Source: Minisyncoccia bacterium
GTDB taxonomy: Bacteria > Patescibacteriota > Minisyncoccia > Phycocordibacterales > UBA9973
Assembly (NCBI GenBank): GCA_049303835.1
Contig: JBAQNN010000002.1
Location: forward strand, 94,492-158,491
Direction of reading: 5' to 3'
Length of the DNA: 64,000 nt
Within the stretch, counting starts at the first letter, position 1, and each line of letters begins with the position of its first letter. The notes under the pieces are model-generated. The model was not told the DNA's origin, did no database searches, and was given only the letters and a program-made list of their open reading frames with translations. Positions 2,087 through 58,212 of the stretch are shown here, piece by piece. The position numbers were made by a program, and so were the translations under genes.

Positions 2087-2096
2087 AAAATAAATT

Positions 2097-2939: not shown

Positions 2940-2984
2940 AAAAGATAAAATTCCTTAGACTATCATATATGATATACTAAAGAA

Positions 2985-3464
2985 TTAAATTTTTAGCATT
3001 CCAAAGAGTGCCACACCCAAGGCTACCGAGACATTTAGTGATTCCTTTTTTCCACGCATTGGAATCTCAGCAACAATATCGCACTTTTTTAAAATATTCT
3101 TTGGTATACCTGTCACTTCCGCCCCGACAATGAACGCGTTTCTATTTTGTAACTTTACTTTTTTGTAATCAATAGACTTTTTATCTTGTTCTATGCCAAT
3201 AATTAAATATTTTTCTTTCTTTAATTTAGTGAGTAATTGTAAAATATTTTTCTTCTGTTCCCATTTCACAAATTCTTCCGCCCCGAGCGCAGACTTTGCC
3301 AAGTCTCCTCTCTTCCTACCGAAACGATCCAGCGGCGTAGGCGTGTACCCCGTCAAATAAATCTTATCTATCCCCGCCGCATCCGCCGTGCGAAACATCG
3401 CTCCGACATTTTCCACACTTCGTATGTCATTTAATATTAAAATGTTTTTTTGATTCATAATCAT
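2985..3464 (-). CDS. SpoU/TrmH-family RNA 2'-O-methyltransferase
   Basis: 159 aa, NVGAMFRTADAAG and IPMRG..ESLNVSVA motifs of the SPOUT class. 4-nt overlap with uvrC. Confidence 0.8.
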   Translation of the reverse strand: MIMNQKNILILNDIRSVENVGAMFRTADAAGIDKIYLTGYTPTPLDRFGRKRGDLAKSALGAEEFVKWEQKKNILQLLTKLKKEKYLIIGIEQDKKSIDYKKVKLQNRNAFIVGAEVTGIPKNILKKCDIVAEIPMRGKKESLNVSVALGVALFGMLKI

Positions 3465-4690: not shown

Positions 4691-4691
4691 A

Positions 4692-7358: not shown

Positions 7359-7438
7359 ATTTGTCCGCCCACTAGCGGATAACGCAATGCACACCCCGCT
7401 TTGTTCATAGGGGGTGTCTATCTCAATAATCTAACATA

Positions 7439-9577: not shown

Positions 9578-9754
9578 TAATAGAGCTTACCTCATCAAAG
9601 ACATTATTGTAAGCATTGACCACTAAATAAAAAGCCAGACCCGAGCTTATAATAGTAAAAATAAACAAATATAAAAGCGAATGATTCAATTCTTTTATTG
9701 ACGACATAATAGACATTATACCACAAACAATTTTTCTGCTATAATATTCTGGCC

Positions 9755-10279
9755 ATGGAAAATTTTAAATTTATACTAATTTCAATAATTATTATCGCAG
9801 GCATGGGACTGCTCGGCTATTGGGCAATACGCACACTACCAACAGGAGACGTATATGTCAGCAAACAAAAACAACAAATACTTGAAGAAGAAAACAGAGA
9901 ACTCACAGAAGAAATCAACAGGTTAAAAAAAGAACTAACAGCATTACAACCAAAAGAAGAGGAAAAACCGGAAGTAACTACAACCACTCCAACCAAACCG
10001 ACAACTGTGACTTATAAACATCAAAGTCTGATCAATGATCTACAAAAACTTGTTACTGGTGGAATTTTTATGAAACAAGGATCACAAGGTACCAGAGTGG
10101 GCACTCTACAAACTTTCTTGAATATATATAATAATACTTCAAAAAAAGTGGACAACGACTATGGCGCGGGAATGAAAACAGACGTTATGAATTTCCAAAA
10201 AGCAGAAAAAATAACAGCGGATGGAGAAGCAGGGCCTACCACCTTCCAAAAAATGATAGATTGGCTCAAGAAACAATAG
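9755..10279 (+). CDS. membrane-anchored protein with C-terminal peptidoglycan-binding domain
   Basis: N-terminal TM helix, coiled-coil/Thr-Pro linker, PG_binding_1-like GSQGTRVGTLQTFLN...DGEAGPTTFQKM. Confidence 0.7.
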   Translation: MENFKFILISIIIIAGMGLLGYWAIRTLPTGDVYVSKQKQQILEEENRELTEEINRLKKELTALQPKEEEKPEVTTTTPTKPTTVTYKHQSLINDLQKLVTGGIFMKQGSQGTRVGTLQTFLNIYNNTSKKVDNDYGAGMKTDVMNFQKAEKITADGEAGPTTFQKMIDWLKKQ

Positions 10280-10290
10280 AATTCTATTTG

Positions 10291-10363
10291 TGCGCCCGCT
10301 CGGGATCGAACCGAGGACCTTATCCTTAAAAGGGATCTGCTCTACCAGCTGAGCTACGGGCGC
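10291..10363 (-). tRNA. tRNA-Lys (anticodon UUU), no encoded CCA
   Basis: Hand-folded cloverleaf: acceptor GCGCCCG/CGGGCGC, D arm GCTC-AGCTGGTA-GAGC, anticodon loop CTTTTAA, T arm CTCGG-TTCGATC-CCGAG. Confidence 0.9.
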
Positions 10364-10404
10364 ATATTTCTTTATGAATGTACAAATCTGATAGTACCAT
10401 ATTT

Positions 10405-11052
10405 CTAGAAAGCTTCAAGTAAAAATTGCTCAAAGGCGGATTCGGCGTCCAGACCTTTTTTTCGGGCCTCGGGCAAAAGGTAGGAAATTTTAGATACATA
10501 ATTTTTCAATTGTTCTTCGGAAAATTTACTAAAATTCTTTTTCAAAAGCATATCTTTAATTTTCCAAAAAAGCACACCGATTAACTCTTCCATTACAACT
10601 CCTTTGTCTACAGCCTGACGAAAATAAATCCAGGTGTTCAACTTGTCTTTGTTGGCAAACGCGTTTGCCAACAAAAAATTATCAAATTTTTCCTTTTTTT
10701 CTTTCGGTAATTCAAAAATATTCAGCTCTGCCCTCGCTTTTTTGAAAGCATCCAGAATCGGTTTGTTCAGTTTACTTTCCAAAAAAACAAAAATATTACC
10801 AGAACTACTCATCAGATCTAATTTTTCTAACACAAAATCACGCGTCTCTTCATGTTCAAATACGCCCAGAAAAATTACCGCCAATTTCGCAGAAAATAGA
10901 CTGGAGCCAGAATACAAACTCTCAACCTGGGCCCGGCTAAAATCATTCCTGTTCACAGAAAAAACTTCTGTACCTTCAGGTATAGATTTTATAAATTTTT
11001 CATAATTTAATATTTTATTTTGTGCATCATCACCCGAAAAGAGGTAAAGCAT
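10405..11052 (-). CDS. probable DNA polymerase III delta subunit (HolA-like, short)
   Basis: 215 aa, MLYLFSGDD...; N-terminus and overall pattern resemble short HolA proteins. No strong motif, weak call. Confidence 0.4.
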   Translation of the reverse strand: MLYLFSGDDAQNKILNYEKFIKSIPEGTEVFSVNRNDFSRAQVESLYSGSSLFSAKLAVIFLGVFEHEETRDFVLEKLDLMSSSGNIFVFLESKLNKPILDAFKKARAELNIFELPKEKKEKFDNFLLANAFANKDKLNTWIYFRQAVDKGVVMEELIGVLFWKIKDMLLKKNFSKFSEEQLKNYVSKISYLLPEARKKGLDAESAFEQFLLEAF

Positions 11053-11060
11053 AAAATTAA

Positions 11061-11555
11061 CTATAACTTAACAGATTTTTTATATTCTATATAAGGAGCC
11101 CCATATTTTATAGTCAAAATATCCTCCTCTTTTTTTAAAAAGAAAAATTTGGCTATAAAAAAATTAACAAAAGCAAAAACAACAATAAAAATTGCATTGC
11201 TTACCAAACCGAGCCCTAATGTTAGGAAAAATAATCCTAGGTGGGTAGGAGCGCGAGTAAAACGATATGGCCCATGAGTAAAGGTTTCTTTGTTGATATT
11301 TTCTTTGTTTAGCTTACGAGATGTTTTCTGTGCCCAAACAATCAAAAAAGTGGCAAAAATCAAAAACAAAAAACCTAGTAACACAACACTGTAACTATCA
11401 AAAACCCCTAGGCTGGAATTAAAAAACAAATCCAAGCAAATACTAATTAATAAAAGAAAAAAGAAAAAGAAATACGAGTGTGCTAAAACTTTATGTACAC
11501 TTTGTTTTGGAGGGCTAGTTTTATTGAAATCTTCCATACCCTTATCATACCACAA
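11061..11555 (-). CDS. isoprenylcysteine carboxyl / phospholipid methyltransferase-family membrane protein
   Basis: 164 aa, four predicted TM helices, GPYRFTRAPTHLG motif typical of the ICMT/PEMT family. Confidence 0.6.
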   Translation of the reverse strand: MWYDKGMEDFNKTSPPKQSVHKVLAHSYFFFFFLLLISICLDLFFNSSLGVFDSYSVVLLGFLFLIFATFLIVWAQKTSRKLNKENINKETFTHGPYRFTRAPTHLGLFFLTLGLGLVSNAIFIVVFAFVNFFIAKFFFLKKEEDILTIKYGAPYIEYKKSVKL

Positions 11556-11559
11556 AATG

Positions 11560-14016
11560 CTACTTTACTTCTCCCAAATTTTTCCCTGAACCAGAGTGCA
11601 CCAGAAGAGGGACATCTGTTTTAAAATGAAGATATGACCGCAAGAGTACCCCCTCCATGGCTTCTTTGATTATTTTATCGGCTGTATCCAATACACCGTC
11701 TTCGGTCTCATATACTAATTCGTCGTGAATTTGTAAAATCAAATGAACCTTATCCAACATACCGGCGTTTTTTAGATCCTCTTCCGCATACCTTATGGCT
11801 AATTTAATAATATCAGCTGCTGTACCCTGTATCGGTGCGTTTGTGGCCGTTCGCTCAGCCATATTTTTTAAAAAAGGAATTCTGGAGTTAATGTTTGGGA
11901 AATAACGCCTACGACCAAATAGAGTTTCCGTATAAGAATGTTTTTCGGCAAAAACTTTTACTCCATTTAAATAGTCCCTCACTCCCCTAAACTGATGAAA
12001 ATAATTATCGTAAAATTTTTGAGCTTCTTCGCGAGTACCTCCCAGATTTTTACGCAAGGCCGAAACCCCCATGCCATAAATAATACCGAAGTTTATAACT
12101 TTTGCCTTCCGACGCATCTCGCTGTCCACTTTCTCTATCGGAACTCCGAAAACAAATGAAGCGACCCCGGCATGAATATCTTTTTTTTCTTTAAAAACTT
12201 GGGTCATCTTTTCGTCCAAAGAAAGCATCGCTGCGACCCGCAATTCAATCTGGCTATAATCAAAAGCAATAAGTTTGTGCCCTTTTTCTGCGATAAAACC
12301 ATCCCTGATTTTTTTCCCCAATTCTGTTTTTATTGGTAAATTTTGTAGATTTGGATCCTGAGATGAAAATCTGCCGGTGGTAGAGCCATTTTGAATAAAC
12401 TTAGCGTGTAGGCGACCATCATCACCCGCCATTTTAGGGATAACATCAATATAAGTGGAAAGTAATTTCTGTAATTCCCGGTAAGCCATTATTTCTTTTA
12501 TTATTTCATTCTCTTCTTCCAATTCTTCCAATACCGAAATCTTGGTAGAAAAACCTCCACTGGCATTTTTCTTTGCCTTGTTTTTACCTGGAGATTTTAT
12601 TCCTAATTTATTAAAAAGTATTTCTCCCAGTTGTTTGGGAGAATTGATATTGAATTCTGTTCCGGCCTGCTGGTATATTTTTTTTGTTAAAATATCCAAT
12701 TCTCTGTGATATTCTTCTGATAACTTTTCAAAATATTTTTTATCTATCAAGACCCCATGGTCCTCCATTTTTTTTACGATGGGTATAATCGGTTTTTCTA
12801 TTTCTTCATAAACTTTTTCAAGATTTTGTTCTTTTAATTTTTTGAAAATATGCTCATAGGCTGTTTCAAAAGATTCGGTATGCGCATAAAGTAAAATATC
12901 TTCCAGATTTGGATTAGAAATATCAGAATTGATAATCCATAAAGCAATACTAGCTTCTTGTAGTTTTTTTGAGTCCACAGAATCCTGGCGAGAGTGCTCG
13001 GAGGAATCTTCGCTACTGGCAGAAAAACCTTGCTCCTCCAGGACAGATTGCGAATGACGGAGAGCATCTTCGCCAGGATTCTGACTTTCAAAAAAGTTTC
13101 TTAAACGTCCAAGCAAACTTCTGAATTCAAATTGGGCGAAAACTTCTTCAATTTTTTTGAAATCAGCATTTTCCCAAAAAGTCTTCTCTGGCAAAGAGAA
13201 ATTTATTGGCGCATCTGTACGGATGGTCGCCAGTGTTTTTGAAAATAAAGCTTCTTCTTCGTTATTTTTTAATAGCTCAATCATCCTAGGACTAATGCCC
13301 ACTTTTTTAAATTGTAATTCGTAATTTGTACTTCGTAATTGCTTATAAATTTCTTCTATGGTGCCAAAATTTACAATCAAGTTTTCAGCCGTCTTTTCAC
13401 CTATACCTTTGATACCAATAATATTGTCAGATGGATCTCCTCGTAATCCCTTGTAGTCTGGTAAAAGCTTTGGTTTAAAACCAAAACGTTTCACTACCGC
13501 ATCCTCATCATATAAAATAGTATCGTTGATTCCCTTCTTTAGGGTATATATTTGAACTTTCTTATCATCCACCAACTGCATGGTGTCCATATCTCCGGAA
13601 GCAATAACAATATTCAGACTTCTGTCTTTTTTGTATTTCTCAACGATAGTTCCCAACACATCATCCGCCTCAAACCCGGGAGCATCGTAAATAGGAATAC
13701 TGAAAGCCTCAAAAATCTTCCGAGAGTTTTGTAATTGCACAATGAGTGCTTCGTCGGCTTTTACCCGACCGGCCTTATACGCATCATAAGCTTCGTGTCT
13801 AAAGGTCTTTTGTGGCAAATCATAGCAAGCGACGATATAGTCTGGCTTTAGCTCGGTAATTATTTTCATCAACATGCTGGAAAGTCCGTATAGTGCCCCG
13901 GTAGGTTCACCTTTTCCAGACAAAAATTCCGGCAAGGCGTGGTAAGCACGATGAATGATGGCATGAGCATCCAACAGGACCAATTTTTTATTTTTCTGTT
14001 CTTCTGTTTTAGGCAT
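11560..14016 (-). CDS. polA: DNA polymerase I
   Basis: 818 aa, 5' nuclease domain (LLDAHAIIHRAYHA), pol motifs DYSQIELRV, RRKAKVINFGIIYG, QIHDELV. Confidence 0.95.
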   Translation of the reverse strand: MPKTEEQKNKKLVLLDAHAIIHRAYHALPEFLSGKGEPTGALYGLSSMLMKIITELKPDYIVACYDLPQKTFRHEAYDAYKAGRVKADEALIVQLQNSRKIFEAFSIPIYDAPGFEADDVLGTIVEKYKKDRSLNIVIASGDMDTMQLVDDKKVQIYTLKKGINDTILYDEDAVVKRFGFKPKLLPDYKGLRGDPSDNIIGIKGIGEKTAENLIVNFGTIEEIYKQLRSTNYELQFKKVGISPRMIELLKNNEEEALFSKTLATIRTDAPINFSLPEKTFWENADFKKIEEVFAQFEFRSLLGRLRNFFESQNPGEDALRHSQSVLEEQGFSASSEDSSEHSRQDSVDSKKLQEASIALWIINSDISNPNLEDILLYAHTESFETAYEHIFKKLKEQNLEKVYEEIEKPIIPIVKKMEDHGVLIDKKYFEKLSEEYHRELDILTKKIYQQAGTEFNINSPKQLGEILFNKLGIKSPGKNKAKKNASGGFSTKISVLEELEEENEIIKEIMAYRELQKLLSTYIDVIPKMAGDDGRLHAKFIQNGSTTGRFSSQDPNLQNLPIKTELGKKIRDGFIAEKGHKLIAFDYSQIELRVAAMLSLDEKMTQVFKEKKDIHAGVASFVFGVPIEKVDSEMRRKAKVINFGIIYGMGVSALRKNLGGTREEAQKFYDNYFHQFRGVRDYLNGVKVFAEKHSYTETLFGRRRYFPNINSRIPFLKNMAERTATNAPIQGTAADIIKLAIRYAEEDLKNAGMLDKVHLILQIHDELVYETEDGVLDTADKIIKEAMEGVLLRSYLHFKTDVPLLVHSGSGKNLGEVK
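12978..13083. repeat. hairpin-forming GC-richer segment inside polA linker
   Basis: 12978-12991 CAGAATCCTGGCGA is the exact reverse complement of 13070-13083. Stem extends by TGCTC/GAGCA; inner GGAGGA (13000-13005) pairs with TCCTCC (13034-13039). Confidence 0.55.
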
Positions 14017-14023
14017 TATCTTA

Positions 14024-14032
14024 ATTATACCA
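14024..14032 (-). promoter_or_regulatory. extended -10 (TGGTATAAT on minus strand) 7 nt upstream of polA ATG
   Basis: Read directly from the reverse complement of 14017-14032. Confidence 0.45.
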
Positions 14033-14060
14033 TTTAGAACGAAACCAATCTTTGAGTTAT

Positions 14061-14516
14061 TTATCTGAGTTTAAAATGCTTGTGTTCATTTTTATCCGTT
14101 AAAATATGGATTTTTTTGGCGTGTCCCGGTATTACCCCGGCTACATTTTCTGGCCATTCAATAAAAACCAAGTGCTCTTCGTTATTGATTATATCTTCCC
14201 ATCCCAGGTGTAATAATTCATTTTCATTTTTCAGACGATACGCATCCAGGTGAAACATAAATTTATGTTTTTTGTTTTTAAGAGAATATTTTTTTATTAT
14301 TACAAATGTCGGGCTGTTTACTTTATTTTTTACCCCGAGATGTCGGGCTATAGCCTGAACAAAAGTAGTCTTACCGGCACCCAAGTCCCCCGACAAACCG
14401 ACCACTAACGCTCCTTTTTTATTTCTTTTTTCTCCGAGTATTTTTTCAAGAAACATTTTCGCTATTTCCTTGGTTTCCCTGACGTTTTTTGAAATTTTTG
14501 TGGCATTTTTAGGCAT
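14061..14516 (-). CDS. tsaE: tRNA t6A biosynthesis ATPase TsaE
   Basis: 151 aa, GDLGAGKTTFVQ P-loop and SPTF...HLDAYR motifs. Confidence 0.85.
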   Translation of the reverse strand: MPKNATKISKNVRETKEIAKMFLEKILGEKRNKKGALVVGLSGDLGAGKTTFVQAIARHLGVKNKVNSPTFVIIKKYSLKNKKHKFMFHLDAYRLKNENELLHLGWEDIINNEEHLVFIEWPENVAGVIPGHAKKIHILTDKNEHKHFKLR

Positions 14517-17553: not shown

Positions 17554-18090
17554 ATGTCAGGCCATAACAAATGGGCGCAGATAAAACACAAGAAAGCCAT
17601 CACCGACGCAAAAAAGAGTAAGATCTTCTCCAAGCTTGTGCGTTTCATTTCTGTAGAAGCAAAACTTTCTGGTGGAAAAGAGTCACCCGGGCTTCGCGCG
17701 GCCATTGAAAAGGCCAAGAAAGTGAATATGCCGGCGGACAATATTGAAAGAGCTATTAAGAAAGCGAGTGAGCCTGGGGCACATATGGACGCCATCACTT
17801 ATGAAGCTTATGGCCCGGGTGGAGCAGGAATAATTATTGAAACGTTGACTGATAGTAAAAACAGAACGGCACAAGATATAAAACACATTCTTACAAAAAA
17901 CGGTTTTTCCTTGGGAGGTATCGGCTCTGTCACTTGGGCGTTTAAAAAAGAAAAAAGCCCCGAGGGGCTCATCTGGACACCGACTAGCACTACTTCTCTT
18001 TCAGATACAGACTTGGAACTTTTAGATAAACTCGTGGAGGACTTGGAAGAAAATGATGATGTGCAGGATGTGTACACGAATGCCGAATAG
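17554..18090 (+). CDS. YebC/PmpR-family regulator (short, 178 aa)
   Basis: MSGHNKWAQIKHKKA... canonical YebC N-terminus. Shorter than the usual ~240 aa. Confidence 0.8.
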   Translation: MSGHNKWAQIKHKKAITDAKKSKIFSKLVRFISVEAKLSGGKESPGLRAAIEKAKKVNMPADNIERAIKKASEPGAHMDAITYEAYGPGGAGIIIETLTDSKNRTAQDIKHILTKNGFSLGGIGSVTWAFKKEKSPEGLIWTPTSTTSLSDTDLELLDKLVEDLEENDDVQDVYTNAE

Positions 18091-18108
18091 AAGTGTTAAA
18101 ATAACATT

Positions 18109-18588
18109 ATGCGAATTTTAGGAATAGATCCGGGATATGAAAGACTTGGGGTCGCTATATTAGAAAAAAATAAAAACGGTGATAAGGAAAAAGTACTTTT
18201 TTCCGAATGTTTTAAAACTTCTGTTAAATTAGAATTTGCGGAACGATTAAATTTAATTGGCGAAGAAGTCAGAATGATTATAAAAAAATTCAAGCCGGAA
18301 GTTCTTTCCGTAGAAACTTTATTTCTAAATACCAATCATAAAACAGTCATGCGGGTGGCCGAAGCCCGCGGAGTAATAATTTATGAAGCTTCTCGTGCTC
18401 ATCTTAAAATATTTGAAGCCTCTCCCCCGCAAATAAAAATAGCGACTACCGGTTATGGTAAATCAGACAAGGCACAAATAATTAAAATGGTAAAAATGCT
18501 CGTAAAAATGGACAATTCTAAAACCTCAGATGATGAGTTGGATGCTATTGCTATAGCCATCACCGCTTTCGCACATACAAAAATTTAG
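18109..18588 (+). CDS. ruvC: Holliday junction resolvase RuvC
   Basis: 159 aa, MRILGIDPGY..., catalytic D/E pattern, DELDAIAIA near the C-terminus. Confidence 0.9.
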   Translation: MRILGIDPGYERLGVAILEKNKNGDKEKVLFSECFKTSVKLEFAERLNLIGEEVRMIIKKFKPEVLSVETLFLNTNHKTVMRVAEARGVIIYEASRAHLKIFEASPPQIKIATTGYGKSDKAQIIKMVKMLVKMDNSKTSDDELDAIAIAITAFAHTKI

Positions 18589-41562: not shown

Positions 41563-42417
41563 CTAGTTTTTAGCAAGCATTGACCAGTCTGATAGTGACA
41601 AATCTTCCGCTCTTTTATCTCCCAAGTTTGCCGAAGACAATTTTTCGGTAGAAATCAACCCTTTTAGGTTTGAAGAAAGCTTTTTGCGCTTGTGGGCAAA
41701 GCCATTTTTCACTATTTCCCAAAATTTTTCTTCATTTATTTTATTTTTATAAAAAAATTGACGAGAAATATTTTTTATCTCAATGATTGCCGAATCAACC
41801 TTGGGCTCGGGAGAAAAATACCTCTTATTTACCTTCATAACCATTTTCGGTTCCCCATATGCCTTCACGGAGATAGAAAGGATACTCTCCTTCCCGTCTC
41901 TGGCGACTATTCTAGACGCCACCTCGTGCTGAACCATGAGCACCATACGCTCTGGCTGATTTTCTGCTGTCAAAAATTTTTTTAAAATAGCGCCAGTGAT
42001 GTTGTAAGGAATGTTGGCAATTAGCTTATAGCTACACAAAATATTCTCGGACTCACCACGCATATTCACCTGCTGGTGAATTGCTTTTCTCGCGCCGTCG
42101 CGCTGCGAAGAGGTTCGCTCTAGAACATTTTGTTTCAGGTTAAAGTTCAAAATATCTTCATTTATTAACACAAAAGCACCTAACTGAATTTGTGTGGCAA
42201 ATTTGGTTTTTAAAAACTCAAAAAGTTCTCTATCTTTTTCTACTGCTACTACAGTGGCTCCGGTCTGTAGAAGTTTTTCTGTTAGCGCTCCCTTGCCCGG
42301 ACCAATCTCTAGGACAACATCACCAGGTTTTATTTCTCCCGCCTCGATAATCTTCTTGAGAGCTAGCTCAGATTTCAAAAAATTCTGTCCAAGTGATTTT
42401 TTTGCTTTGTGTATCAT
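41563..42417 (-). CDS. rsmA: 16S rRNA (adenine1518/1519-N6)-dimethyltransferase RsmA/KsgA
   Basis: 284 aa, SLGQNFL, VLEIGPGKGALT, ANIPYNIT motifs. Confidence 0.9.
   Translation of the reverse strand: MIHKAKKSLGQNFLKSELALKKIIEAGEIKPGDVVLEIGPGKGALTEKLLQTGATVVAVEKDRELFEFLKTKFATQIQLGAFVLINEDILNFNLKQNVLERTSSQRDGARKAIHQQVNMRGESENILCSYKLIANIPYNITGAILKKFLTAENQPERMVLMVQHEVASRIVARDGKESILSISVKAYGEPKMVMKVNKRYFSPEPKVDSAIIEIKNISRQFFYKNKINEEKFWEIVKNGFAHKRKKLSSNLKGLISTEKLSSANLGDKRAEDLSLSDWSMLAKN
42036..42133. repeat. in-frame GC-rich hairpin insertion inside rsmA (homologous to the pcrA copy)
   Basis: Closing stem ACAAAAT.TTCT / AGAA.ATTTTGT. Hairpin ATTCACC-TGCT-GGTGAAT (42064-42081) and hairpin GCGC-CGTC-GCGC (42092-42103). 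Confidence 0.7.
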
Positions 42418-43962: not shown

Positions 43963-45990
43963 TTATAAGTAAATCGTTTTTATTCCGCTAGTTTCGCCTT
44001 CTTTTTCTAATAAATCTGCTGGGATGTCGGAAATAAATTCCGAAGGAGCGTTTATTTGGCGTGAGCCGAAAATGGTGCGGAAATTTGCAAAGGATAAAAA
44101 TAATTTTTCTTTCGCGCGAGTAAGGGCTACATAAAATAGTCGGCGTTCCTCTTCTCTATCCTCGCCTGTTTGTCTCTCGTTCTGTCTTTCGTGCGGAAAG
44201 AGTCCGTCTTCCAGCCCTGTGACAAAAACGTATTTAAACTCAAGGCCCTTTGAAGCATGGACAGTCATGAGTTTGACGGCATTTATCGTTTCTTTTTTTT
44301 CTGTTTGGATCATTAACGAATCTTGGTCACTCGCCAGAGCTCCATCTTCTAAAAGCTTTTCTATGCCTGCACCGTTTTCTAAATTATCGTATTTCAAAGC
44401 CAAGGTAGCAAGCTCTTTGATGTTTTCCAGTCTTTCTATGTCCTCCTCTCCCCCACCCAAAAGCTCTTGTTCAATGCCGGATTTTTTGACCACAAACTTT
44501 ATCACTTCACTCGCTTTGGCGGTTTTTATTTTTTCTTTTATTTCTTCCAGAATTTGATAAAAATTGTTTATTTTCACTCTGACTTTTATTGGTAGCCCCC
44601 CGATTTCATTAGCAAAAATTTTTACTAAAGTGACCTTACCTATTCCTCGCGCCGGGAAATTGATAATTCTTTTTATATCCGAGAGGCTGTCAGGGTTTAA
44701 GGCGGCACGTAAATATGCGAGGGTGTCTTTGATTTCTTTTCTTTCAAAAAACTTTACTCCGAGGACCTGATAAGGAATATTGTAGCGGAGCATCGCTTCT
44801 TCCAGTGCGCGGGATTGAAAGTTTGCGCGATACAAGACCGCAATCTCTGAGTGTGAGCCTAGAGAAGAATGTTGATCCATAATTTCTAAAATTTTTGTCG
44901 CCACAAACTCTGCTTCGTCGGTTTCATCCAACGCTTCGTAGAGTCCTATTTTATCGCCCACTACATTTTCAGTAAATAAATTTTTATCCGGGCGGTATTT
45001 GTTTTTTTTGATTATCTCATTGGCCGCTTCCAAAATATTCTTTGTAGAACGATAATTTTGTTCTAGTAAGATTATTTTTGCATTCGGATAATCTTTTTCA
45101 AAACTCAAAATATTTTTTAAATTTGCTCCGCGCCAGGAATAAATATTCTGATCCGCATCTCCCACTACGCAGATATTTTTGTTGTTTTCGGAAAGCAGTT
45201 TGGACATCAAATATTGCACTTCGTTGGTGTCTTGATATTCGTCTACATGGATGAAGTCCCATTTTTCTTGATAAATTTTCCTAATTTCTGCATTTTCTTT
45301 TAATAATTTTGTCGCTTTCAAAAGCAAGTCGTCAAAATCAAGCGAATTTTCCTTCATCTTTTGTTTTTCATACAAATTCCACACCTGGGCCACTATTTTC
45401 CCTAGAGTGTCACTAGCCCCTTCCGCATAATCGGATAAGTGCACGAATTTCCCCTTTTCGCGCGAGATTATATTTTTTATTTTTTTTGGATCGTATTGTT
45501 TCGGATCTATGCCAAGCTCTTTTAAGATATTTTTTATCAAAGTCGTCGCATCGCCCTCATCTAAAATTGTGAAATATTTTGTGAGTCCGAGCAATTTAGC
45601 ATTTTGTTTTATTATATAAACTCCGAGTGAGTGAAATGTAGAAACGAAAGGCGCAGAAAATACTTCTCGCCTGGGGTCGCTGTCTCCACGTGCTCGTGGA
45701 GCGCTCCCTCTCGGCTCGTCAGCCTGCGAGAGACCCCACTCAAGAAGATTTTCTGCGCCCAGGGCAGACATGATTCTCTCCCGCATTTCTTTCGCTGCTT
45801 TGTTTGTGAAAGTCACAGCCAAAATCTTCTCCGGAGCGATTCCATTTTTTATCAAATTTACGATTCTGTGGGTGATAGTCTTGGTTTTTCCTGCTCCTGC
45901 TCCGGCGACGACAAGAAGCGGACCGTCCATATGAAGCGCCGCCTCTTTTTGTTCGTTATTTAGCCCCGCCAAGTGCTCCAAATTAGTCAC
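43963..45990 (-). CDS. pcrA: ATP-dependent DNA helicase PcrA/UvrD (GTG start)
   Basis: 675 aa, motif I AGAGAGKTKT, Ia, II VDEYQDTN, TFHSLG, VHASKGLEF. Confidence 0.9.
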   Translation of the reverse strand: MTNLEHLAGLNNEQKEAALHMDGPLLVVAGAGAGKTKTITHRIVNLIKNGIAPEKILAVTFTNKAAKEMRERIMSALGAENLLEWGLSQADEPRGSAPRARGDSDPRREVFSAPFVSTFHSLGVYIIKQNAKLLGLTKYFTILDEGDATTLIKNILKELGIDPKQYDPKKIKNIISREKGKFVHLSDYAEGASDTLGKIVAQVWNLYEKQKMKENSLDFDDLLLKATKLLKENAEIRKIYQEKWDFIHVDEYQDTNEVQYLMSKLLSENNKNICVVGDADQNIYSWRGANLKNILSFEKDYPNAKIILLEQNYRSTKNILEAANEIIKKNKYRPDKNLFTENVVGDKIGLYEALDETDEAEFVATKILEIMDQHSSLGSHSEIAVLYRANFQSRALEEAMLRYNIPYQVLGVKFFERKEIKDTLAYLRAALNPDSLSDIKRIINFPARGIGKVTLVKIFANEIGGLPIKVRVKINNFYQILEEIKEKIKTAKASEVIKFVVKKSGIEQELLGGGEEDIERLENIKELATLALKYDNLENGAGIEKLLEDGALASDQDSLMIQTEKKETINAVKLMTVHASKGLEFKYVFVTGLEDGLFPHERQNERQTGEDREEERRLFYVALTRAKEKLFLSFANFRTIFGSRQINAPSEFISDIPADLLEKEGETSGIKTIYL
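45650..45759. repeat. in-frame GC-rich hairpin insertion inside pcrA (about 29 extra codons between motif Ia region and TFHS)
   Basis: 12-nt perfect terminal inverted repeat GGCGCAGAAAAT / ATTTTCTGCGCC, extended by CTTCT/AGAAG and TGGGGTC/GACCCCA. Hairpin CTCCACG-TGCT-CGTGGAG (45684-45701) and hairpin GGCT-CGTC-AGCC (45713-45724). Confidence 0.75.
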
Positions 45991-50919: not shown

Positions 50920-50968
50920 CGTATATTAAATAAAAATAGTTTGCAAAAAAATTAAGAGAAATTAGAAA

Positions 50969-51002
50969 GGGGCGGGGTGTCGATTTCTCGACTCCCCGCC
51001 CC
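50969..51002 (-). terminator. GC-rich rho-independent terminator of the small GC-rich ORF
   Basis: GGGGCGGGGtGTCGA-tttc-TCGACtCCCCGCCCC. In minus-strand sense it is followed by a U-rich tract (CTTTCTAATTTCTCTTAATTTTTTTT). Confidence 0.7.
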
Positions 51003-51026
51003 GATGGGTGGCTGTGGCGTGTCAGA

Positions 51027-51188
51027 TCAGAAGAGCTTCTTGACGATCTCCCTGAAGCTCTCCAGGTTGGAGAGCGCGAGAAGGGTCGCGACGACGATGG
51101 TGAGCACCCCGAGCGAGATGCCCAGCATGGTCTTGGTGGGGTTTCGCTTCGGTGAAGGGTTGTCTTCATCCAGTCCGAGCATGGTCAT
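51027..51188 (-). CDS. 53-aa single-pass membrane protein encoded by a ~58% GC ORF (compositionally foreign)
   Basis: Own translation: MTMLGLDEDNPSPKRNPTKTMLGISLGVLTIVVATLLALSNLESFREIVKKLF. SD AAAGGAG lies 6 nt upstream, with its own promoter and terminator. It is below the track cutoff; the track shows only two long out-of-frame ORFs here. Confidence 0.55.
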   Translation of the reverse strand: MTMLGLDEDNPSPKRNPTKTMLGISLGVLTIVVATLLALSNLESFREIVKKLF

Positions 51189-51210
51189 GTTTTTCTCCTT
51201 TCCGAATTTG

Positions 51211-51238
51211 ATACTACAATAAAGACGCCTTTTGTCAA
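51211..51238 (-). promoter_or_regulatory. sigma70-like promoter (TTGACA, 16 nt, TAGTAT on minus strand) of the GC-rich small ORF
   Basis: Read from the reverse complement: ccTTGACAaaaggcgtctttattgTAGTATc. Confidence 0.45.
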
Positions 51239-51252
51239 GGATAGATTTTTTG

Positions 51253-53075: not shown

Positions 53076-53146
53076 TGCGGCCAGAGAGAATCGAACTCTC
53101 GTCTCATCCTTGGCAAGGACGTGTTCTACCACTAAACCATGACCGC
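53076..53146 (-). tRNA. tRNA-Gly (anticodon GCC), no encoded CCA
   Basis: Hand-folded: acceptor GCGGTCA/TGGCCGC, anticodon arm CGTCC-TTGCCAA-GGATG, T arm GAGAG-TTCGATT-CTCTC. Confidence 0.9.
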
Positions 53147-53249
53147 TCTTTGTTTGTGAACAAGAACCAGGGATTAAAAATACTGTTTGATTATAATATT
53201 TTATTGATACTAAAGCAATTACAAAAATAGCTTGAAAAATAAGCACTAT

Positions 53250-53278
53250 TTGCCAATATTTTCTGAATAGTGTAAAAT
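53250..53278 (+). promoter_or_regulatory. sigma70-like promoter (TTGCCA, 17 nt, TAAAAT) upstream of tRNA-Arg
   Basis: Read directly. About 25 nt upstream of the mature tRNA 5' end. Confidence 0.4.
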
Positions 53279-53302
53279 AACAGTGTATTATTAGATAATT
53301 CT

Positions 53303-53374
53303 GCACCCGTAGTGAAATGGATATCACAACAGTCTTCGGAACTGTCGTTGGGGGTTCGAGTCCCTCCGGGTGCA
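53303..53374 (+). tRNA. tRNA-Arg (anticodon UCG), no encoded CCA
   Basis: Hand-folded: acceptor GCACCCG/CGGGTGC, anticodon arm ACAGT-CTTCGGA-ACTGT, T arm GGGGG-TTCGAGT-CCCTC. Confidence 0.9.
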
Positions 53375-53440
53375 CAAAGTGCGGGGTACTTTGTGCAAGG
53401 CGGAGCGCGACGGCGCGAGCCAGGGTCGTGCAAATTTTCA
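53371..53440. repeat. GC-rich structured segment between tRNA-Arg and cca, sharing a 16-nt exact match with the rsmA insertion
   Basis: Hairpin TGCACAAAGT-gcggggt-ACTTTGTGCA uses the last 4 nt of the tRNA. 53404-53419 AGCGCGACGGCGCGAG equals the reverse complement of 42089-42104. Confidence 0.65.
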
Positions 53441-53450
53441 GTAGAAAATT

Positions 53451-55079
53451 ATGCCTGACCACAATAATGTTATGGAACAAGATCTAAAAAATTTAATACA
53501 AAAAATACCCAAGGAGGTTTCACATGTAACAAGTACACTAGAAGAAGCTGGTTTTGAAGTGTACCTAGTCGGCGGCTGTGTTCGCGATTTACTGATGAGC
53601 AGAGAGCCCAAAGATTGGGATGTCACTACCAATGCCAAACCGGATCAGATTATTGGTCTTTTTGAGAAAACTATTTACGAAAACACCTTTGGAACCGTAG
53701 GAGTAGTTGTTCCACGCCTGTCCGCCAAAGCCTTGGCGTCGGAGGATGAAACAACAGAAAAAGAGGTTTCACATGAAACTATGATTATTGAGGTCACTCC
53801 ATACAGAATTGAGGCAAAATATAGTGATTTTAGGCATCCAGATGAAGTAAAATTTAGTCAAAAACTAGAAGATGATCTAAAAAGACGCGATTTTGGTGTT
53901 AACGCGATGGCCCTAAGTCCTAAAGGACATCTGGTTGATTTGTTTGATGGTCTAAAGGACATCAAAGATAAGATACTTAAGGCTGTCGGAAACCCAGATG
54001 ACCGATTTGAAGAGGATGCTCTCAGAATGTTGAGAGCTGTCCGTTTTGCTTGTCAACTTGATTTTTCTGTGTCGTATGAAACAACGGAAAGTATTTTGAA
54101 AAATGCGGAATTAATAAAAAAAATTTCTGCCGAAAGAATTCGTGATGAGTTTGTAAAAATGGTTATGTCGCCGAATTCTGCGAGTGGAATGGTGATGTTG
54201 CAAAAATTTAATTTGTTAAAAAATATAATTCCGGAATTAGAAGAGGGGATAGGGTGCGAACAATCGGGCGAACACATATACGATGTTTGGAATCATTTAC
54301 TGGCCGCCCTTCAGCATGCTTCAGACAAGAATTGGCCTTTAGAAATAAGGCTTTCTGCACTTTTTCATGATATCGGGAAACCTCGTTCTAGACGAAGCAT
54401 AACTTCACCTGATGCTTTTGCTCAGTCGCTCGGTCCCTCGTTTCACTCAGCCACTCCTTCACAAAAGCATACAGGTTCAGTTTCTAAATCTAAGAAAAAA
54501 TTTACTTTTTATGGTCATGAAGTTGTCGGCGCACGGATGACAAAAAAAATAATGGAACGGTTAAAATTTTCAAACAAAGAAATTGAAGCTGTGGAAAAAC
54601 TCGTACGCAACCACATGTTCTTCTCGGACACGGAATTGATCACCCTCTCGGCGGTGCGAAGAATCATCACCAAGGTTGGGAAAGAAAACATCTGGTCTCT
54701 AATGGACGTCCGTGAGTGTGACAGGGTCGGGATGAAGAAAAAAGAAGCGCCATATCGCCTGCGGAAGTACTTTGCGATGATAGAAGAGGCACTGAGGGAC
54801 CCAATATCTGTAAGCCAATTAAAGATAAACGGCGAATTTATGCAAAAAGAGCTCGGAATTGTTCCTGGTCCCAGAATGGGGTGGATTTTGAGTGCTCTTC
54901 TAGAGGAAGTCTTAGACGCTCCGGAGAAAAATACTGTGGAACATCTCTCGGAATTAGTGAAATCTCTGAATATGCTAGGAGATGCTGAACTCAAAACTCT
55001 TGGTCTTCGTGGAAAAGAAAAAAAAGAAGAGCTTGAAGAAGAAGAAGTTGCCAAACTTCATAAAAAACACGGAGTCTAA
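53451..55079 (+). CDS. cca: CCA-adding tRNA nucleotidyltransferase with HD domain
   Basis: 542 aa, GGCVRDLL, DWDVTT, RRDFGVNAMA, HDIGKP...YGHE. Carries two apparent insertions (aa ~90-115 and ~312-345). Confidence 0.85.
   Translation: MPDHNNVMEQDLKNLIQKIPKEVSHVTSTLEEAGFEVYLVGGCVRDLLMSREPKDWDVTTNAKPDQIIGLFEKTIYENTFGTVGVVVPRLSAKALASEDETTEKEVSHETMIIEVTPYRIEAKYSDFRHPDEVKFSQKLEDDLKRRDFGVNAMALSPKGHLVDLFDGLKDIKDKILKAVGNPDDRFEEDALRMLRAVRFACQLDFSVSYETTESILKNAELIKKISAERIRDEFVKMVMSPNSASGMVMLQKFNLLKNIIPELEEGIGCEQSGEHIYDVWNHLLAALQHASDKNWPLEIRLSALFHDIGKPRSRRSITSPDAFAQSLGPSFHSATPSQKHTGSVSKSKKKFTFYGHEVVGARMTKKIMERLKFSNKEIEAVEKLVRNHMFFSDTELITLSAVRRIITKVGKENIWSLMDVRECDRVGMKKKEAPYRLRKYFAMIEEALRDPISVSQLKINGEFMQKELGIVPGPRMGWILSALLEEVLDAPEKNTVEHLSELVKSLNMLGDAELKTLGLRGKEKKEELEEEEVAKLHKKHGV
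54407..54476. repeat. hairpin-forming segment within the insertion between HDIGKP and YGHE of cca
   Basis: ACCTG.ATGCTTTTG (54407-54420) pairs with CAAAAGCAT.CAGGT (54462-54476): 14 bp with a one-nucleotide bulge, 41-nt GC-richer loop. Confidence 0.5.
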
Positions 55080-55698: not shown

Positions 55699-56505
55699 AT
55701 GAAAATTGGTATTTTTGATTCCGGACTGGGAGGGCTGATCATCGCGAAAGCTGTGAAAAAAGTGCTGCCAGAGTATGACTACGTATATTTGGGCGACACC
55801 AAGAGGGTGCCGTACGGCAATCGTTCTTATGATGCTGTCTTTGAATTTACCCGAGAGTGTGTGGACTATCTTTTTCACAAAGAAAATTGTGCAATTGTTA
55901 TAATTGCCTGTAATACTGCTTCGGCGCGTGCGTTGCGAAAAATTCAACAAGAATATTTACCTCAAAATTTCCCCAAAAATAAATTTCAGCGAAAAGTTCT
56001 AGGTGTTTTGATTCCCGCGGCAGAAGAATGCACAAAATTTGAAAAAATTGGAGTACTGGGGACGAGGGGAACTGTGGATTCAAATACCTTTCCAGTAGAG
56101 ATACGAAAATTTAACAGACGGGCAAGCATTTTTCAGAATTCGGCGCCGATGCTCGTGCCTTTGGCCGAAGAAGGGGAGACAAAAAATGTCTTGCCGTTTA
56201 TTAAAAAATATTTACAACCTTTCAGAAACAAAAAATTGGATGCTTTGGTTCTCGGTTGTACCCATTACCCAATATTTAAAAGCCAAATTAGGAAGTTGTT
56301 GCCCAGGGGTGTAAAAGTGATTTCTCAAGATGAGATTATCCCAAAAAAATTGAAAAATTATCTAAAAAGACACCAAGAAATCACCCAAAAACTTTCCAGA
56401 AATCACACAGCCAAAATCTTGGTGACTGATATGACAAAAAGTGTAGAAAAATTAACTCAAAAGTGGTTTGGAAAAGATATCAAACCAAAACTAATCAATC
56501 TCTAA
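55699..56505 (+). CDS. murI: glutamate racemase
   Basis: 268 aa, IGIFDSGLGGL, IIACNTAS, LGCTHYP motifs. Confidence 0.9.
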   Translation: MKIGIFDSGLGGLIIAKAVKKVLPEYDYVYLGDTKRVPYGNRSYDAVFEFTRECVDYLFHKENCAIVIIACNTASARALRKIQQEYLPQNFPKNKFQRKVLGVLIPAAEECTKFEKIGVLGTRGTVDSNTFPVEIRKFNRRASIFQNSAPMLVPLAEEGETKNVLPFIKKYLQPFRNKKLDALVLGCTHYPIFKSQIRKLLPRGVKVISQDEIIPKKLKNYLKRHQEITQKLSRNHTAKILVTDMTKSVEKLTQKWFGKDIKPKLINL

Positions 56506-57290
56506 ACCAAAGTAATCCAAAGTGGGCAATGGTCTGAGCCATAATAGTCGTTTAGCATTCCCGAGTCTTTGATTTTTGGCAGGATTTTTTTGTCGGCGAA
56601 AAAATAATCAATTCTCCAGCCGACGTTCCTGTCTCGTGCGCGGGTTTTCTGGTCCCAGTAGGTGTAGACATCTTTTTTGCCTGGGTTTAAATTTCTCCAA
56701 ACATCTATAAAATTATTTTTTACTACTTTATCCAGCCAAGCGCGTTCTATCGGCAAGAATCCCGTATTTTCTTCATTTTCTTTTGGCCGAGCCAGGTCTA
56801 TCGCTTCGTGGGCAGTGTTTACATCTCCGCAGAAGATTACATTTTCGCCATTTTTGCGGAGTTTTGAAATAAATTTTAAAAAAGCATCATAAAATTCAAG
56901 TTTGTATTTTAATCTTTCCGGGCCTTGTCCACCGTTCGGGAAATAGCAGGTTATTATTGTATAATTTTTTAATTTTATACCAATTAGTCTACCCTCATCA
57001 TCTAATTTTTCCACACCCATGCCGTAGAAAACCTTCGTGGGCTTTTCTTTGGTGTAAATAGCGACTCCGCTGTAACCCTTTTTAGTTTTGGGATGCGAAA
57101 AATAAGAAAAATATCCGGGAACGTTCCGTACATCTTCCGGTAATTGTTCTGGTTCTGCTTTTGTTTCCTGTAGGCACAAAACATCTGGACTTTTATCAAA
57201 AAGGGGAGTAAAAAATCCTTGCTTTGCTGTCGCCCGGAGTCCATTTGTGTTCCAAGAAATTATTTTTACCTGTTCTTTGGTATGGTTCAT
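56502..57290 (-). CDS. xth: exodeoxyribonuclease III
   Basis: KIISWNTNGLRA, LCLQETK, GSDHCPL motifs. I use the ATG at 57290 (MNHTKEQ), which removes the overlap with the xer gene given by the track start at 57329. Confidence 0.9.
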   Translation of the reverse strand: MNHTKEQVKIISWNTNGLRATAKQGFFTPLFDKSPDVLCLQETKAEPEQLPEDVRNVPGYFSYFSHPKTKKGYSGVAIYTKEKPTKVFYGMGVEKLDDEGRLIGIKLKNYTIITCYFPNGGQGPERLKYKLEFYDAFLKFISKLRKNGENVIFCGDVNTAHEAIDLARPKENEENTGFLPIERAWLDKVVKNNFIDVWRNLNPGKKDVYTYWDQKTRARDRNVGWRIDYFFADKKILPKIKDSGMLNDYYGSDHCPLWITLV

Positions 57291-57294
57291 ATTT

Positions 57295-58212
57295 TTATTT
57301 TTGATTATGAAATTTTTTATGGATCTCACGGAGATGTTTGTCGGTCACGTGAGTATATATCTGAGTGGTGCCTATGTTCGCATGACCCAACATCACTTGG
57401 ACCGACCTTATGTCCGCGCCGTTGTTTAATAAATCAGTGGCAAAAGAATGTCTGATGACGTGAGGGGTGACTTTTTTGGTGATGCCGGCCTTGATAGCGT
57501 GTTGCTTTACGATTCTTTCAACAGATCTGCGAGTAAGGGGCGCTCCTGTGCCAGGTGTAGGGGAATCTCCGACTTGGATAAATAATGCGTCGCTCATATC
57601 TTTGCGCACGTCCAAATATTTTTTTACCGCTTTTTTTGCTTCATCGGATATAAAGACTACTCGTACCTTGCCTCCTTTTCCTCGGATGGATATCTCATCT
57701 CTTTTAAAATCAAAATCATTGGTGAGGGAACAGAGTTCGGATACGCGCAAGCCGGTGGAAAATAATAATTCAAGGATGGCTTTGTCTCGCAAATCTTTCA
57801 AGGTGTTTCCACTTGGGGAATTTAGAAGCCTCACTAGTTCGTCTGGAGAGATGAGGTCAAGCGATCGTTCGGGAGTTTTGGCCAATTCTATCTGATCTCT
57901 TGGCATGGATTTTATCTCTCTCTTGGTTAAGTATTTCAAAAAAACCCGGAGAGCGATCAGATAATAATTTTGAGTTTTTTTGGAAACAGTATTTCCATTT
58001 TGTCTGTTGTTGCCGGTACTTTGTCTGTTTAACCAGAGGCGAAATTCTCGTACGGAGGCATCATTGATATCGCTCGGACTTTTTATTTTAGCAAATTCAA
58101 AAAAACAAGTGAGATAATGCTCGTAGTTTTCTACTGTCCTTATCGCCCGGCCTTTTTCTATTTCCAAATATTCCAAGAATTCACGTTTGAGTTTGTCTAT
58201 CTCTGTCGCCAT
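57295..58212 (-). CDS. tyrosine recombinase XerC/XerD family
   Basis: 305 aa, ...RHSFATDLLNNGADIRSVQVMLGHANIGTTQIYTHV catalytic region. Confidence 0.85.
   Translation of the reverse strand: MATEIDKLKREFLEYLEIEKGRAIRTVENYEHYLTCFFEFAKIKSPSDINDASVREFRLWLNRQSTGNNRQNGNTVSKKTQNYYLIALRVFLKYLTKREIKSMPRDQIELAKTPERSLDLISPDELVRLLNSPSGNTLKDLRDKAILELLFSTGLRVSELCSLTNDFDFKRDEISIRGKGGKVRVVFISDEAKKAVKKYLDVRKDMSDALFIQVGDSPTPGTGAPLTRRSVERIVKQHAIKAGITKKVTPHVIRHSFATDLLNNGADIRSVQVMLGHANIGTTQIYTHVTDKHLREIHKKFHNQK

Follow-up and report, generated by a model that had tools for sequence, protein, structure and literature searches.

Among the dispersed repeats described so far, the closest in behaviour to the element reported here are the Rickettsia palindromic elements (RPEs), short palindromic repeats that often lie in frame in housekeeping genes and add a peptide segment to the product (PMC10969869). 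Our element occupies the spacer between a tRNA-Arg gene and cca, which encodes the CCA-adding enzyme, in a 64,000-nt stretch of DNA (hereafter the window) from a Minisyncoccia bacterium (GenBank assembly GCA_049303835.1, contig JBAQNN010000002.1, positions 94,492 to 158,491 of the forward strand). The genes of the window and their closest relatives point to Candidatus Nomurabacteria (Patescibacteria, or candidate phyla radiation (CPR)), the best cca homologues (69-83% identity) coming from metagenome-assembled genomes (MAGs) of this kind; an exact look-up of the cca protein in a collection of assemblies gave no entry. To our knowledge no transposase is associated with RPEs, and CPR bacteria, with their tiny genomes, are not known for repeat families; in the literature we found no description of such elements in CPR/Patescibacteria. 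Bacterial MITEs (miniature transposable elements with inverted repeats), among them Correia/CREE, ERIC, RUP and Nezha, are likewise non-autonomous, shorter than 300 bp, hairpin-folding and multi-copy, are sometimes co-transcribed and occasionally give in-frame fusions (PMC10969869, PMC3184786), traits that they have in common with the family described below. Weighing all comparisons, we favour, at a probability of about 0.72, the view that the spacer is a copy of an RPE-like, non-autonomous hairpin repeat family of Nomurabacteria that was inserted site-specifically after tRNA-Arg. The parts of the spacer element are as follows.

53378-53464 (equivalently 53373-53459, given the CACAA repeat), plus strand: inserted element of 87 nt, without counterpart in 69 of 74 related tRNA-cca junctions
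53373-53377, plus strand: left copy of a short direct repeat (CACAA) at the tRNA end, which resembles a target duplication
53460-53464, plus strand: right copy of the direct repeat CACAA
53371-53397, plus strand: hairpin H1, 12 pairs closed by the loop GGG; tRNA end and flank supply the 5' arm, and the 3' arm GTACTTTGTGCA belongs to the insertion
53399-53421, plus strand: hairpin H2, GGC-gga-GCGC-GACG-GCGC-ga-GCC, holding the 16-mer at 53404-53419, the hallmark motif of the family
53424-53460, plus strand: hairpin H3, GGTCG-t-GCAAATTTTC-AGTA-GAAAATTaTGC-c-TGACC, containing GGGTCGTGCAAA and the ATG at 53451

That the spacer was gained by insertion follows from comparison with 80 related cca loci (L001-L080), in 74 of which a tRNA lies directly upstream (mostly Arg-TCG, with Gly-GCC in 20 loci and Arg-CCG in 2). 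In the 69 empty junctions only ~10-20 A-rich bases separate the tRNA from the start of cca (GTG/ATG GAA CAA...), whereas ~87 extra bases stand at exactly that junction in the window, L003, L037, L050 and the diverged L051. The right flank of the element in L003 (AACAATGCCATGG) is the entire spacer of the empty locus L028 (AACAATGCCGTGG), which fixes the boundaries of the insertion. Together with L056 and L127, where no cca lies downstream of the tRNA-Arg, this gives seven tRNA-site copies in total. The core of the element lies exactly 20 nt downstream, on the same strand, of 6 of the 88 tRNA-Arg(TCG) genes in the DNA examined, L051 being a seventh, diverged case; none of 86 tRNA-Gly(GCC) and none of 80 tRNA-Pro genes is followed by it. 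Filled loci are dispersed over the cca tree, with empty loci as their nearest relatives (L003 and L006 share 90% protein identity, yet L006 is empty). The elements of L003, L037 and L050 are nevertheless 97%, 93% and 90% identical to that of the window, while third codon positions of cca agree at only 44-52% and the tRNA-Arg of L037 is only 74% identical to ours. Since the distribution is patchy and element identity stays at 90-97% despite saturated third positions, recurrent site-specific insertion is favoured. We take recurrent, recent insertion at one exact position to be a simpler reading than vertical inheritance with many precise losses and near-total constraint, possible as the latter is.

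At its ends the insertion is flanked by the CACAA repeat, the actual target repeat, which an earlier note on this DNA had missed; at other tRNA sites it measures 7-8 nt (CACAAAG in L050, CACAAAAT in L127 and CACAAAA in L051). That note had described a GC-rich element running to 53440, and although such an element is real, it is longer and reaches 53464. H1 has the form TGCACAAAGT(GC)-GGG-(GT)ACTTTGTGCA, i.e. TGCACAAAGTGC-GGG-GTACTTTGTGCA, with 10 Watson-Crick pairs, or 12 when G-U and C-G are counted; it opens with TGCA, the three final acceptor-stem bases and the discriminator, as the proposed 10-bp hairpin with the final four tRNA bases had it. We observe that the 3' arm is complementary to the tRNA end and flank in 7/7 tRNA-site copies, and that changes occur on both sides of the stem: L037 has C in the tRNA and G in the arm where the window has T and A, and L051 and L127 pair AAAA with TTTT where the window pairs AAAG with CTTT. 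Pairing of this arm with the direct repeat on the right is also possible and would close the core. A second string, GGGTCGTGCAAA, had been read as another likeness of the tRNA end; it is present at 53424-53435, but it is no tRNA copy and forms the conserved 5' half of H3, and the motif recurs in copies unconnected with any tRNA (L075, L009, L037:1110 and L047). Folded with DNA parameters, the 115-nt spacer region reaches -28.4 kcal/mol (z = -5.0), a value that none of 200 shuffles equalled.

The kinship of the spacer with an insertion in rsmA had been proposed from the 16-mer AGCGCGACGGCGCGAG (53404-53419), which is identical to the reverse complement of 42089-42104. Beyond these two the window has no match even when 3 mismatches are allowed (0.04 matches expected; 0/100 shuffles gave two). 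At up to 1 mismatch the 16-mer occurs 9 times in 1.25 Mb (window plus related DNA), each time inside a copy that the core model found independently, and is thus no general GC-rich word; it is the commonest form of H2. The paired bases of H2 covary (GCGC, GGCC, GCCT/AGGC, GGAC/GTCC). Five tRNA-site copies fold into H1, H2 and H3 with compensatory changes in seven pairs. A covariance model built from tRNA-site copies only, including the tRNA-specific H1 (R1), serves as an independent test of membership and matches the rsmA site at 24.6 bits, the homology extending beyond the 16-mer and reaching H3; here rsmA reads GCAA-TTCACC-AGCA-GGTGAA-TATGC and the spacer GCAA-ATTTTC-AGTA-GAAAAT-TATGC, with compensatory changes in the stem. 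Elsewhere in the related loci R1 finds a copy after a tRNA-Arg that does not adjoin cca (L056), copies at several intergenic sites and, in five loci, a copy at the cca 3' end, with the empty allele reading ...GGAGTGAGAAAATAA and the direct repeat GTGAGA. As a model of the whole family R1 was too specific, missing most uvrD copies, and a model of the H2-H3 core (R2) was used in its place.

The seed of R2 comprises 19 diverse copies, the three of the window and 16 related ones, which match by construction, and several further matches are orthologues of seed copies; the informative results are thus the remaining matches, the clean background of the window and the negative control. In the seed alignment 95.8% of cells are paired, compared with 64% after column shuffles and 31-54% with partners slid, and 12 of the 14 pairs show changes on both sides. 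The family core consists of H2 (GAG-4 bp-GACG-4 bp-GAG), a 4-bp GC stem that carries a GACG loop and stands between GAG flanks, and H3, whose AT-rich 10-bp stem bears an AGYA loop and has a bulged A. R2 gives exactly three matches in the window, namely the spacer (73.6 bits, 53395-53464), rsmA (68.8 bits) and a uvrD/pcrA-like gene (61.9 bits), the next scoring 6.5 bits; it gives 85 in 1.19 Mb of related DNA, and 350 kb of sequence surrounding uvrD homologues in distant bacteria has no match. In one subfamily the 64-nt core is 95-100% identical at at least 6 different sites, which indicates recent activity. With Rfam 15 only the tRNAs reach gathering scores, and at E<=10 nothing credible appears in 53290-53500 apart from the tRNA. 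A pattern scan of viral contigs and blastn against GenBank phages revealed no copies, the sole match being a chance 29-nt GC-rich stretch in a Gordonia phage. The 40-residue peptide of the in-frame uvrD copy found no candidate sharing three 5-residue words, which probably reflects the word index and is uninformative on spread. The spacer belongs to a previously undescribed family that is so far restricted to Nomurabacteria-like Patescibacteria.

The two other copies of the window lie within genes, and tie the non-coding spacer to in-frame gene insertions as had been supposed.

42036-42133 (core 42050-42113), minus strand: second family copy, in frame in rsmA (41563-42417, minus strand), closed by the inverted repeat ACAAAATGTTCT / AGAATATTTTGT
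45650-45759 (core 45670-45734), minus strand: third family copy, in frame in a uvrD/pcrA-like helicase gene, closed by the inverted repeat GGCGCAGAAAAT / ATTTTCTGCGCC

Relative to B. subtilis KsgA, the rsmA copy accounts for extra residues ~98-122, and across related loci the loop between I.DDIL and ANIPY is 22-29 aa long when empty and 49-61 aa when filled. Similarly, the uvrD-like protein of the window has 35 residues where PcrA has 5, and the loop between EMRERI and PFVSTFH measures 27 aa in 16 empty loci and 49-70 aa when filled, with at least 4 types of insert. At the xerD-xth junction the window has no insert (57267-57293), while L107/L079, L019, L009 and L120 carry differing cores. Both empty and filled alleles are found at several independent hotspots, the uvrD loop, the rsmA loop, the xerD-xth junction and the stop region of cca. 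Of all 88 copies 36 are intergenic and 52 lie in long open frames (36 sense, 16 antisense), and every coding copy leaves the frame open, such that these are presumably translated. Palindromic repeats in frame in unrelated coding genes are a mark of RPEs, and the copies in rsmA, the uvrD-like gene and cca share this trait. Removal at the RNA level or ribosomal bypass of the coding copies is unlikely, as the host frame is open in all of them, and a sense-only RNA function for the family was rejected in view of the 16 coding copies antisense to their host gene. The occurrence of both orientations points to a DNA-level element and not to a function of the sense-strand RNA for the family.

Several other inserts were seen in these loci, some of them at the same hotspots. 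At least 2 other core families (GGTCCTCGGTTCTCCGGGTC...CCGGCCAGACC and the 'SLRPSRNTEWDP' type), each at the apex of long AT-rich closing stems, occupy the uvrD loop (L099, L101, L102, L106, L113, L118, L132), the rsmA loop (L092, L128, L089), ~1270-1340 of L120 and a site downstream of cca in L008. A second, simpler family of in-frame GC-rich hairpins is represented in the cca of the window by CTGTCCGCCAAAGCCTTGGCGTCGGAG (53712-53745, peptide LSAKALASE), and the related CCCGCCGACGCTAAAGCTTTGGCGGGCAAG (PADAKALAGK) stands at differing cca positions in different genomes (L064, L026, L015, L011, L018, L030, L078). The uvrD homologues of L125, L128, L131 and L135 have an insertion of ~367 aa after the GD.DQ motif that starts with C and ends with THN followed by C, which is intein-like; the window is without it.

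An inverted repeat scoring at least 10 encloses the core in 67% of copies, compared with 0.6% among 2000 random windows. Each site has its own stem, also where the cores are nearly identical, and the outermost 7-25 bp vary; sub-terminal repeats such as ATGTTCTCG...CGAGAATAT recur within a subfamily. The direct repeats of tRNA sites are CACAA(AG/AAT), 5-8 nt in length, and that of the cca 3' end is GTGAGA; none is established for copies closed by inverted repeats. In several copies one arm is recognisable as ancestral host sequence: in L086 it comes from the conserved DILKF codons of rsmA, in L019 from the xerD stop region AAAAACTAA (its inverted copy TTAGTTTTT lying beyond the core), at the uvrD hotspot from the GQEKIP codons and in L075 from the T-tract of a terminator. 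In L086 the copies in uvrD (11202-11265) and rsmA (14018-14081) have a common core and sub-terminal stems AGGATGTTGTTTTGAAAAGC...GCGGTTTTCAAAATAATATCCT, and each inverted repeat runs 8-10 nt further into its own, different host flank. For the 25-bp perfect stem of the xerD-xth copy in L107/L079 a flank origin was unconvincing, as only a 7-mer is common to it and the upstream flank. Site-specific closing repeats exist and some arms are ancestral host sequence, as in the earlier suggestion that insertion may create inverted copies of the flanking target, but template switching or selection after insertion fits equally well. The inverted copies could have been made at insertion, or later by quasipalindrome template switching, an established mutational process that homogenises and extends the arms of inverted repeats (PMC7202029, PMC8604942).

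In the reading that we favour, the 87-nt element would have been inserted at the DNA level right after the discriminator/+1 position of tRNA-Arg(TCG), into an ancestral spacer of ~10-20 nt before cca. The family would spread by copying to junctions between genes and to loops in housekeeping genes, and in the latter only copies that are in frame and free of stops would survive; a trans-acting enzyme that recognises folded hairpins may account for the repeated site-specific insertion. The arms complementary to the flank may be products of intrastrand template switching, during insertion or shortly afterwards, and the tRNA-site element would be a tolerated passenger in a tRNA-Arg/cca co-transcript, where it would lengthen the tRNA 3' trailer and cca leader and, in this genome, offer an upstream in-frame ATG. 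A number of points weigh against this reading. We found no transposase or other mobilising gene in the part of the window covered by Pfam scans, and tblastn over 1.6 Mb with an approximate IS200 TnpA query, which is a weak test, gave no significant match. Insertion is deduced from comparison, no insertion or excision having been observed as an event. The direct repeat is only 5 nt long in the window and lies in A-rich sequence, and hairpins without a core at the xerD-xth junction of L008 and L060 mean that the outer stems could pre-exist at some intergenic sites, where insertion may have been into the loops of pre-existing hairpins. Many of the 88 copies are orthologous, so that independent events are far fewer, roughly 8-10 distinct sites being recognised. 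Finally, the conserved unpaired bases (GAG, the GACG loop and the AGYA loop) and the extreme conservation at the tRNA site would also fit a selected function.

A bolder variant, which we regard as unlikely, is that the family moves by a mechanism new for bacterial repeats, in which the folded core is inserted at sites chosen by base pairing between arm and target, or in which insertion primes an inverted copy of the flank. Were this true, each new copy would be closed by a site-specific stem, subfamilies would 'home' to one position such as the tRNA-Arg(TCG) 3' end or the cca stop codon, and the spacer arm ACTTTGTGCA would be a guide to, or footprint of, the tRNA end.

In a rival reading the spacer might be a selected cis-acting RNA, a structured tRNA-Arg 3' trailer and cca 5' leader in which H1 masks the tRNA 3' end or H3 masks the ATG, thereby tuning RNase Z processing or cca translation, for example through feedback by the CCA-adding enzyme on a minihelix-like hairpin. 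The surroundings that bear on this are as follows.

53250-53278, plus strand: promoter-like site TTGCCA-17-TAAAAT (10/12 consensus matches), upstream of tRNA-Arg
53303-53374 by Rfam (65.3 bits), 53303-53375 by ARAGORN, plus strand: tRNA-Arg (anticodon TCG), with no encoded CCA
53451-53471, plus strand: upstream extension of the cca open reading frame (ORF) by seven codons (MPDHNNV), supplied by the element and unconserved
53472-55079, plus strand: cca, with the conserved start MEQDLKNLI (GTG/ATG GAA CAA in relatives) and PolyA_pol, PolyA_pol_RNAbd, HD and tRNA_NucTran2_2 domains

The promoter-like site probably drives a tRNA-Arg/cca co-transcript. There are no terminator-like sites in 53100-53600 and no promoter-like sites between tRNA-Arg and cca; H1 is followed by AAGGCGG and H3 by ACAATAATG, without the U tract of an intrinsic terminator. 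With a promoter-like site upstream and no terminator between the two genes, the element probably forms part of the transcript, as trailer of the tRNA and leader of cca. A cis-acting RNA would suit such a transcript of a tRNA-Arg without CCA, as well as the pairing of H1 with the acceptor 3' end, which covaries with the tRNA in L037, the far greater conservation of the element than of silent sites in cca, and the same orientation and 20-nt offset in 7/7 tRNA-site copies. Yet the element is found at only 5/75 tRNA-cca junctions, with the closest relatives empty, no cca follows it in L056 and L127, and the same core recurs in coding genes in both orientations and at unrelated intergenic sites. 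Nor is the ATG in H3 conserved, being out of frame and followed by a stop in L037 and replaced by ATT in L050; the longest cca ORF is 53451-55079, and the likely start of cca is 53472 and not 53451. We consider a cis-acting RNA improbable as the explanation of the spacer. A tRNA without encoded CCA ~10-20 nt upstream of the cca start is a synteny kept in nearly all 74 relatives (window 53303-53480; L001-L080 ~2900-3010), and cca is probably co-transcribed with one of its own substrates, which tRNA 3' processing would free. Arg and Gly tRNAs exchange places between genomes, which suggests inversion of the tRNA pair.

No better placed, to our mind, is an origin without any transposon, by templated insertion during replication or repair: GC hairpins would stall synthesis, and the nascent strand would switch to another copy or to its own complementary arm and paste the core and an inverted flank at microhomologies. 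The site-specific closing repeats that include ancestral flank, the short A-rich microhomologies or direct repeats at junctions and the lack of a transposase among the window ORFs scanned and in the weak tblastn search are all consistent with this, as is the established status of quasipalindrome switching. So too are two alleles at the same hotspots. The uvrD loop of L126 (~7546-7632) contains a perfect 9-bp coding hairpin, ATGTCAAAG-ATGCC-CTTTGACAT, that resembles a local inversion of ancestral AATGCCAAAGG, and the uvrD loop of L097 resembles the deletion footprint of a larger element; the two suggest that template-switch mutation is frequent in these genomes. Against such an origin, the precise recurrent position (the 20-nt tRNA-Arg offset and the cca stop region) is more typical of guidance by an enzyme, near-identical 64-nt cores at at least 6 sites need an efficient copying route, and the conserved loop bases suggest recognition by a protein.

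Because tRNA 3' ends are classic integration sites, the spacer might also be the attachment-site scar of an integrative element, its tRNA-like strings being duplicated tRNA ends, and a short repeat of tRNA-proximal flank at both ends and an XerD-like recombinase gene in the window (57295-58212) would accord with this. We find it very improbable, given that the repeat is 5-8 nt of flank and no 15-50 nt copy of the tRNA 3' half (at least 15 nt would be expected), that GGGTCGTGCAAA is an intrinsic family motif found away from tRNAs, and that the insert is only 87 nt and its core also lies inside genes. Chance likeness of GC-rich palindromes in an AT-rich genome, for which speak the 29 short GC-rich islands of the window (38% GC overall) and the fact that such palindromes share words more often than random sequence, is refuted by the 16-mer statistics, the covariation, scores of 60-75 bits over a background of 6.5 and the clean negative control, and retains a negligible probability.

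The hairpin repeat family that we favour can be set against described systems. As in Rickettsia, the host genome is small and AT-rich and copies are both intergenic and in frame, making RPEs the closest analogue in behaviour. However, RPEs reside in Alphaproteobacteria and measure ~100-150 bp, whereas here the host is patescibacterial, the conserved core ~65 nt and the total about 87-110 nt in the window copies; moreover, our family has a conserved GC-rich apex of two hairpins with fixed loops on a site-specific basal stem, and repeatedly hits precise positions at the tRNA-Arg 3' end and in the cca stop region. The host being Candidatus Nomurabacteria, common descent with RPEs is unlikely, the likeness being one of behaviour. 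In classical MITEs the terminal inverted repeats stem from a parent insertion sequence (IS) and are constant across the family, and the target duplication has a fixed length, while here the outermost inverted repeats vary by site and direct repeats of 5-8 nt are recorded for the a-type copies alone; neither the window parts scanned nor the weak tblastn search of 1.6 Mb yielded a parent IS. Yeast mitochondrial GC clusters and 'byp' elements are mobile GC-rich hairpins, byps interrupting the frame and being bypassed by the ribosome. Placozoan mitochondrial hairpin elements are likewise GC-rich modules in a small AT-rich genome, including its coding regions (PMC7813641). Such organelle clusters resemble our family in the spread of GC-rich hairpin modules through a small AT-rich genome, coding regions too, but they are organellar, and byps break the frame whereas our coding copies keep it open and are presumably translated. 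Repetitive extragenic palindromic (REP) sequences, with their composite BIME and REPIN forms and the RAYT transposase (Y1/HUH), share with the family small GC-rich hairpins and conserved short tags, and are recognised as folded single-stranded DNA; CGTC/GACG-type tags are known among REP superfamilies (PMC3733652). REPs differ in being extragenic, of 20-40 nt, with the tag at the foot of the stem; here GACG is a loop and 52/88 copies are intragenic, so that our elements fall outside the REP/REPIN definition, and the approximate TnpA query, weak as that test is, detected no RAYT-like gene by tblastn.

Elsewhere in the window, genes for DNA repair and recombination are unusually dense (1496-14516, 17554-18588, 43963-45990 and 56502-58212), comprising ruvA, fpg, uvrC, uvrA, uvrB, polA, yebC, ruvC, the uvrD/pcrA-like gene, xth and an xerD-like gene. 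A GC-rich stretch (50920-51250) after tRNA-Gly(TCC) was rejected as a family copy, being a small GC-rich ORF plus terminator. This ORF, MTMLGLDEDNPSPKRNPTK... (50969-51187, minus strand, ~50 aa with a hydrophobic segment), lies just downstream of the tRNA. A Shine-Dalgarno-like GGAAAGGAG accompanies it, as does a strong GC-rich terminator, GGGGCGGGG...CCCCGCCCC followed by TTTCT, and its composition is unlike that of its surroundings; Pfam gave no match for it, a longer overlapping ORF serving as the query.

Although an element of this kind is not categorically new, the family is undescribed and well supported, has unusual target and stem features, and comes from a poorly explored phylum. For annotation, it accounts for the GC-rich islands, the overlong loops and the displaced start codons of these MAGs, and its site-specific stems, precise reuse of tRNA-Arg and near-identical cores offer a tractable comparative set on how hairpin elements choose or modify their targets. 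The family reshapes essential proteins (RsmA, the UvrD/PcrA-like helicase and the CCA-adding enzyme) by in-frame peptides and alters tRNA and mRNA leaders. This parallels RPEs in Rickettsia and suggests that 'selfish DNA in coding genes' evolved convergently in reduced AT-rich genomes.

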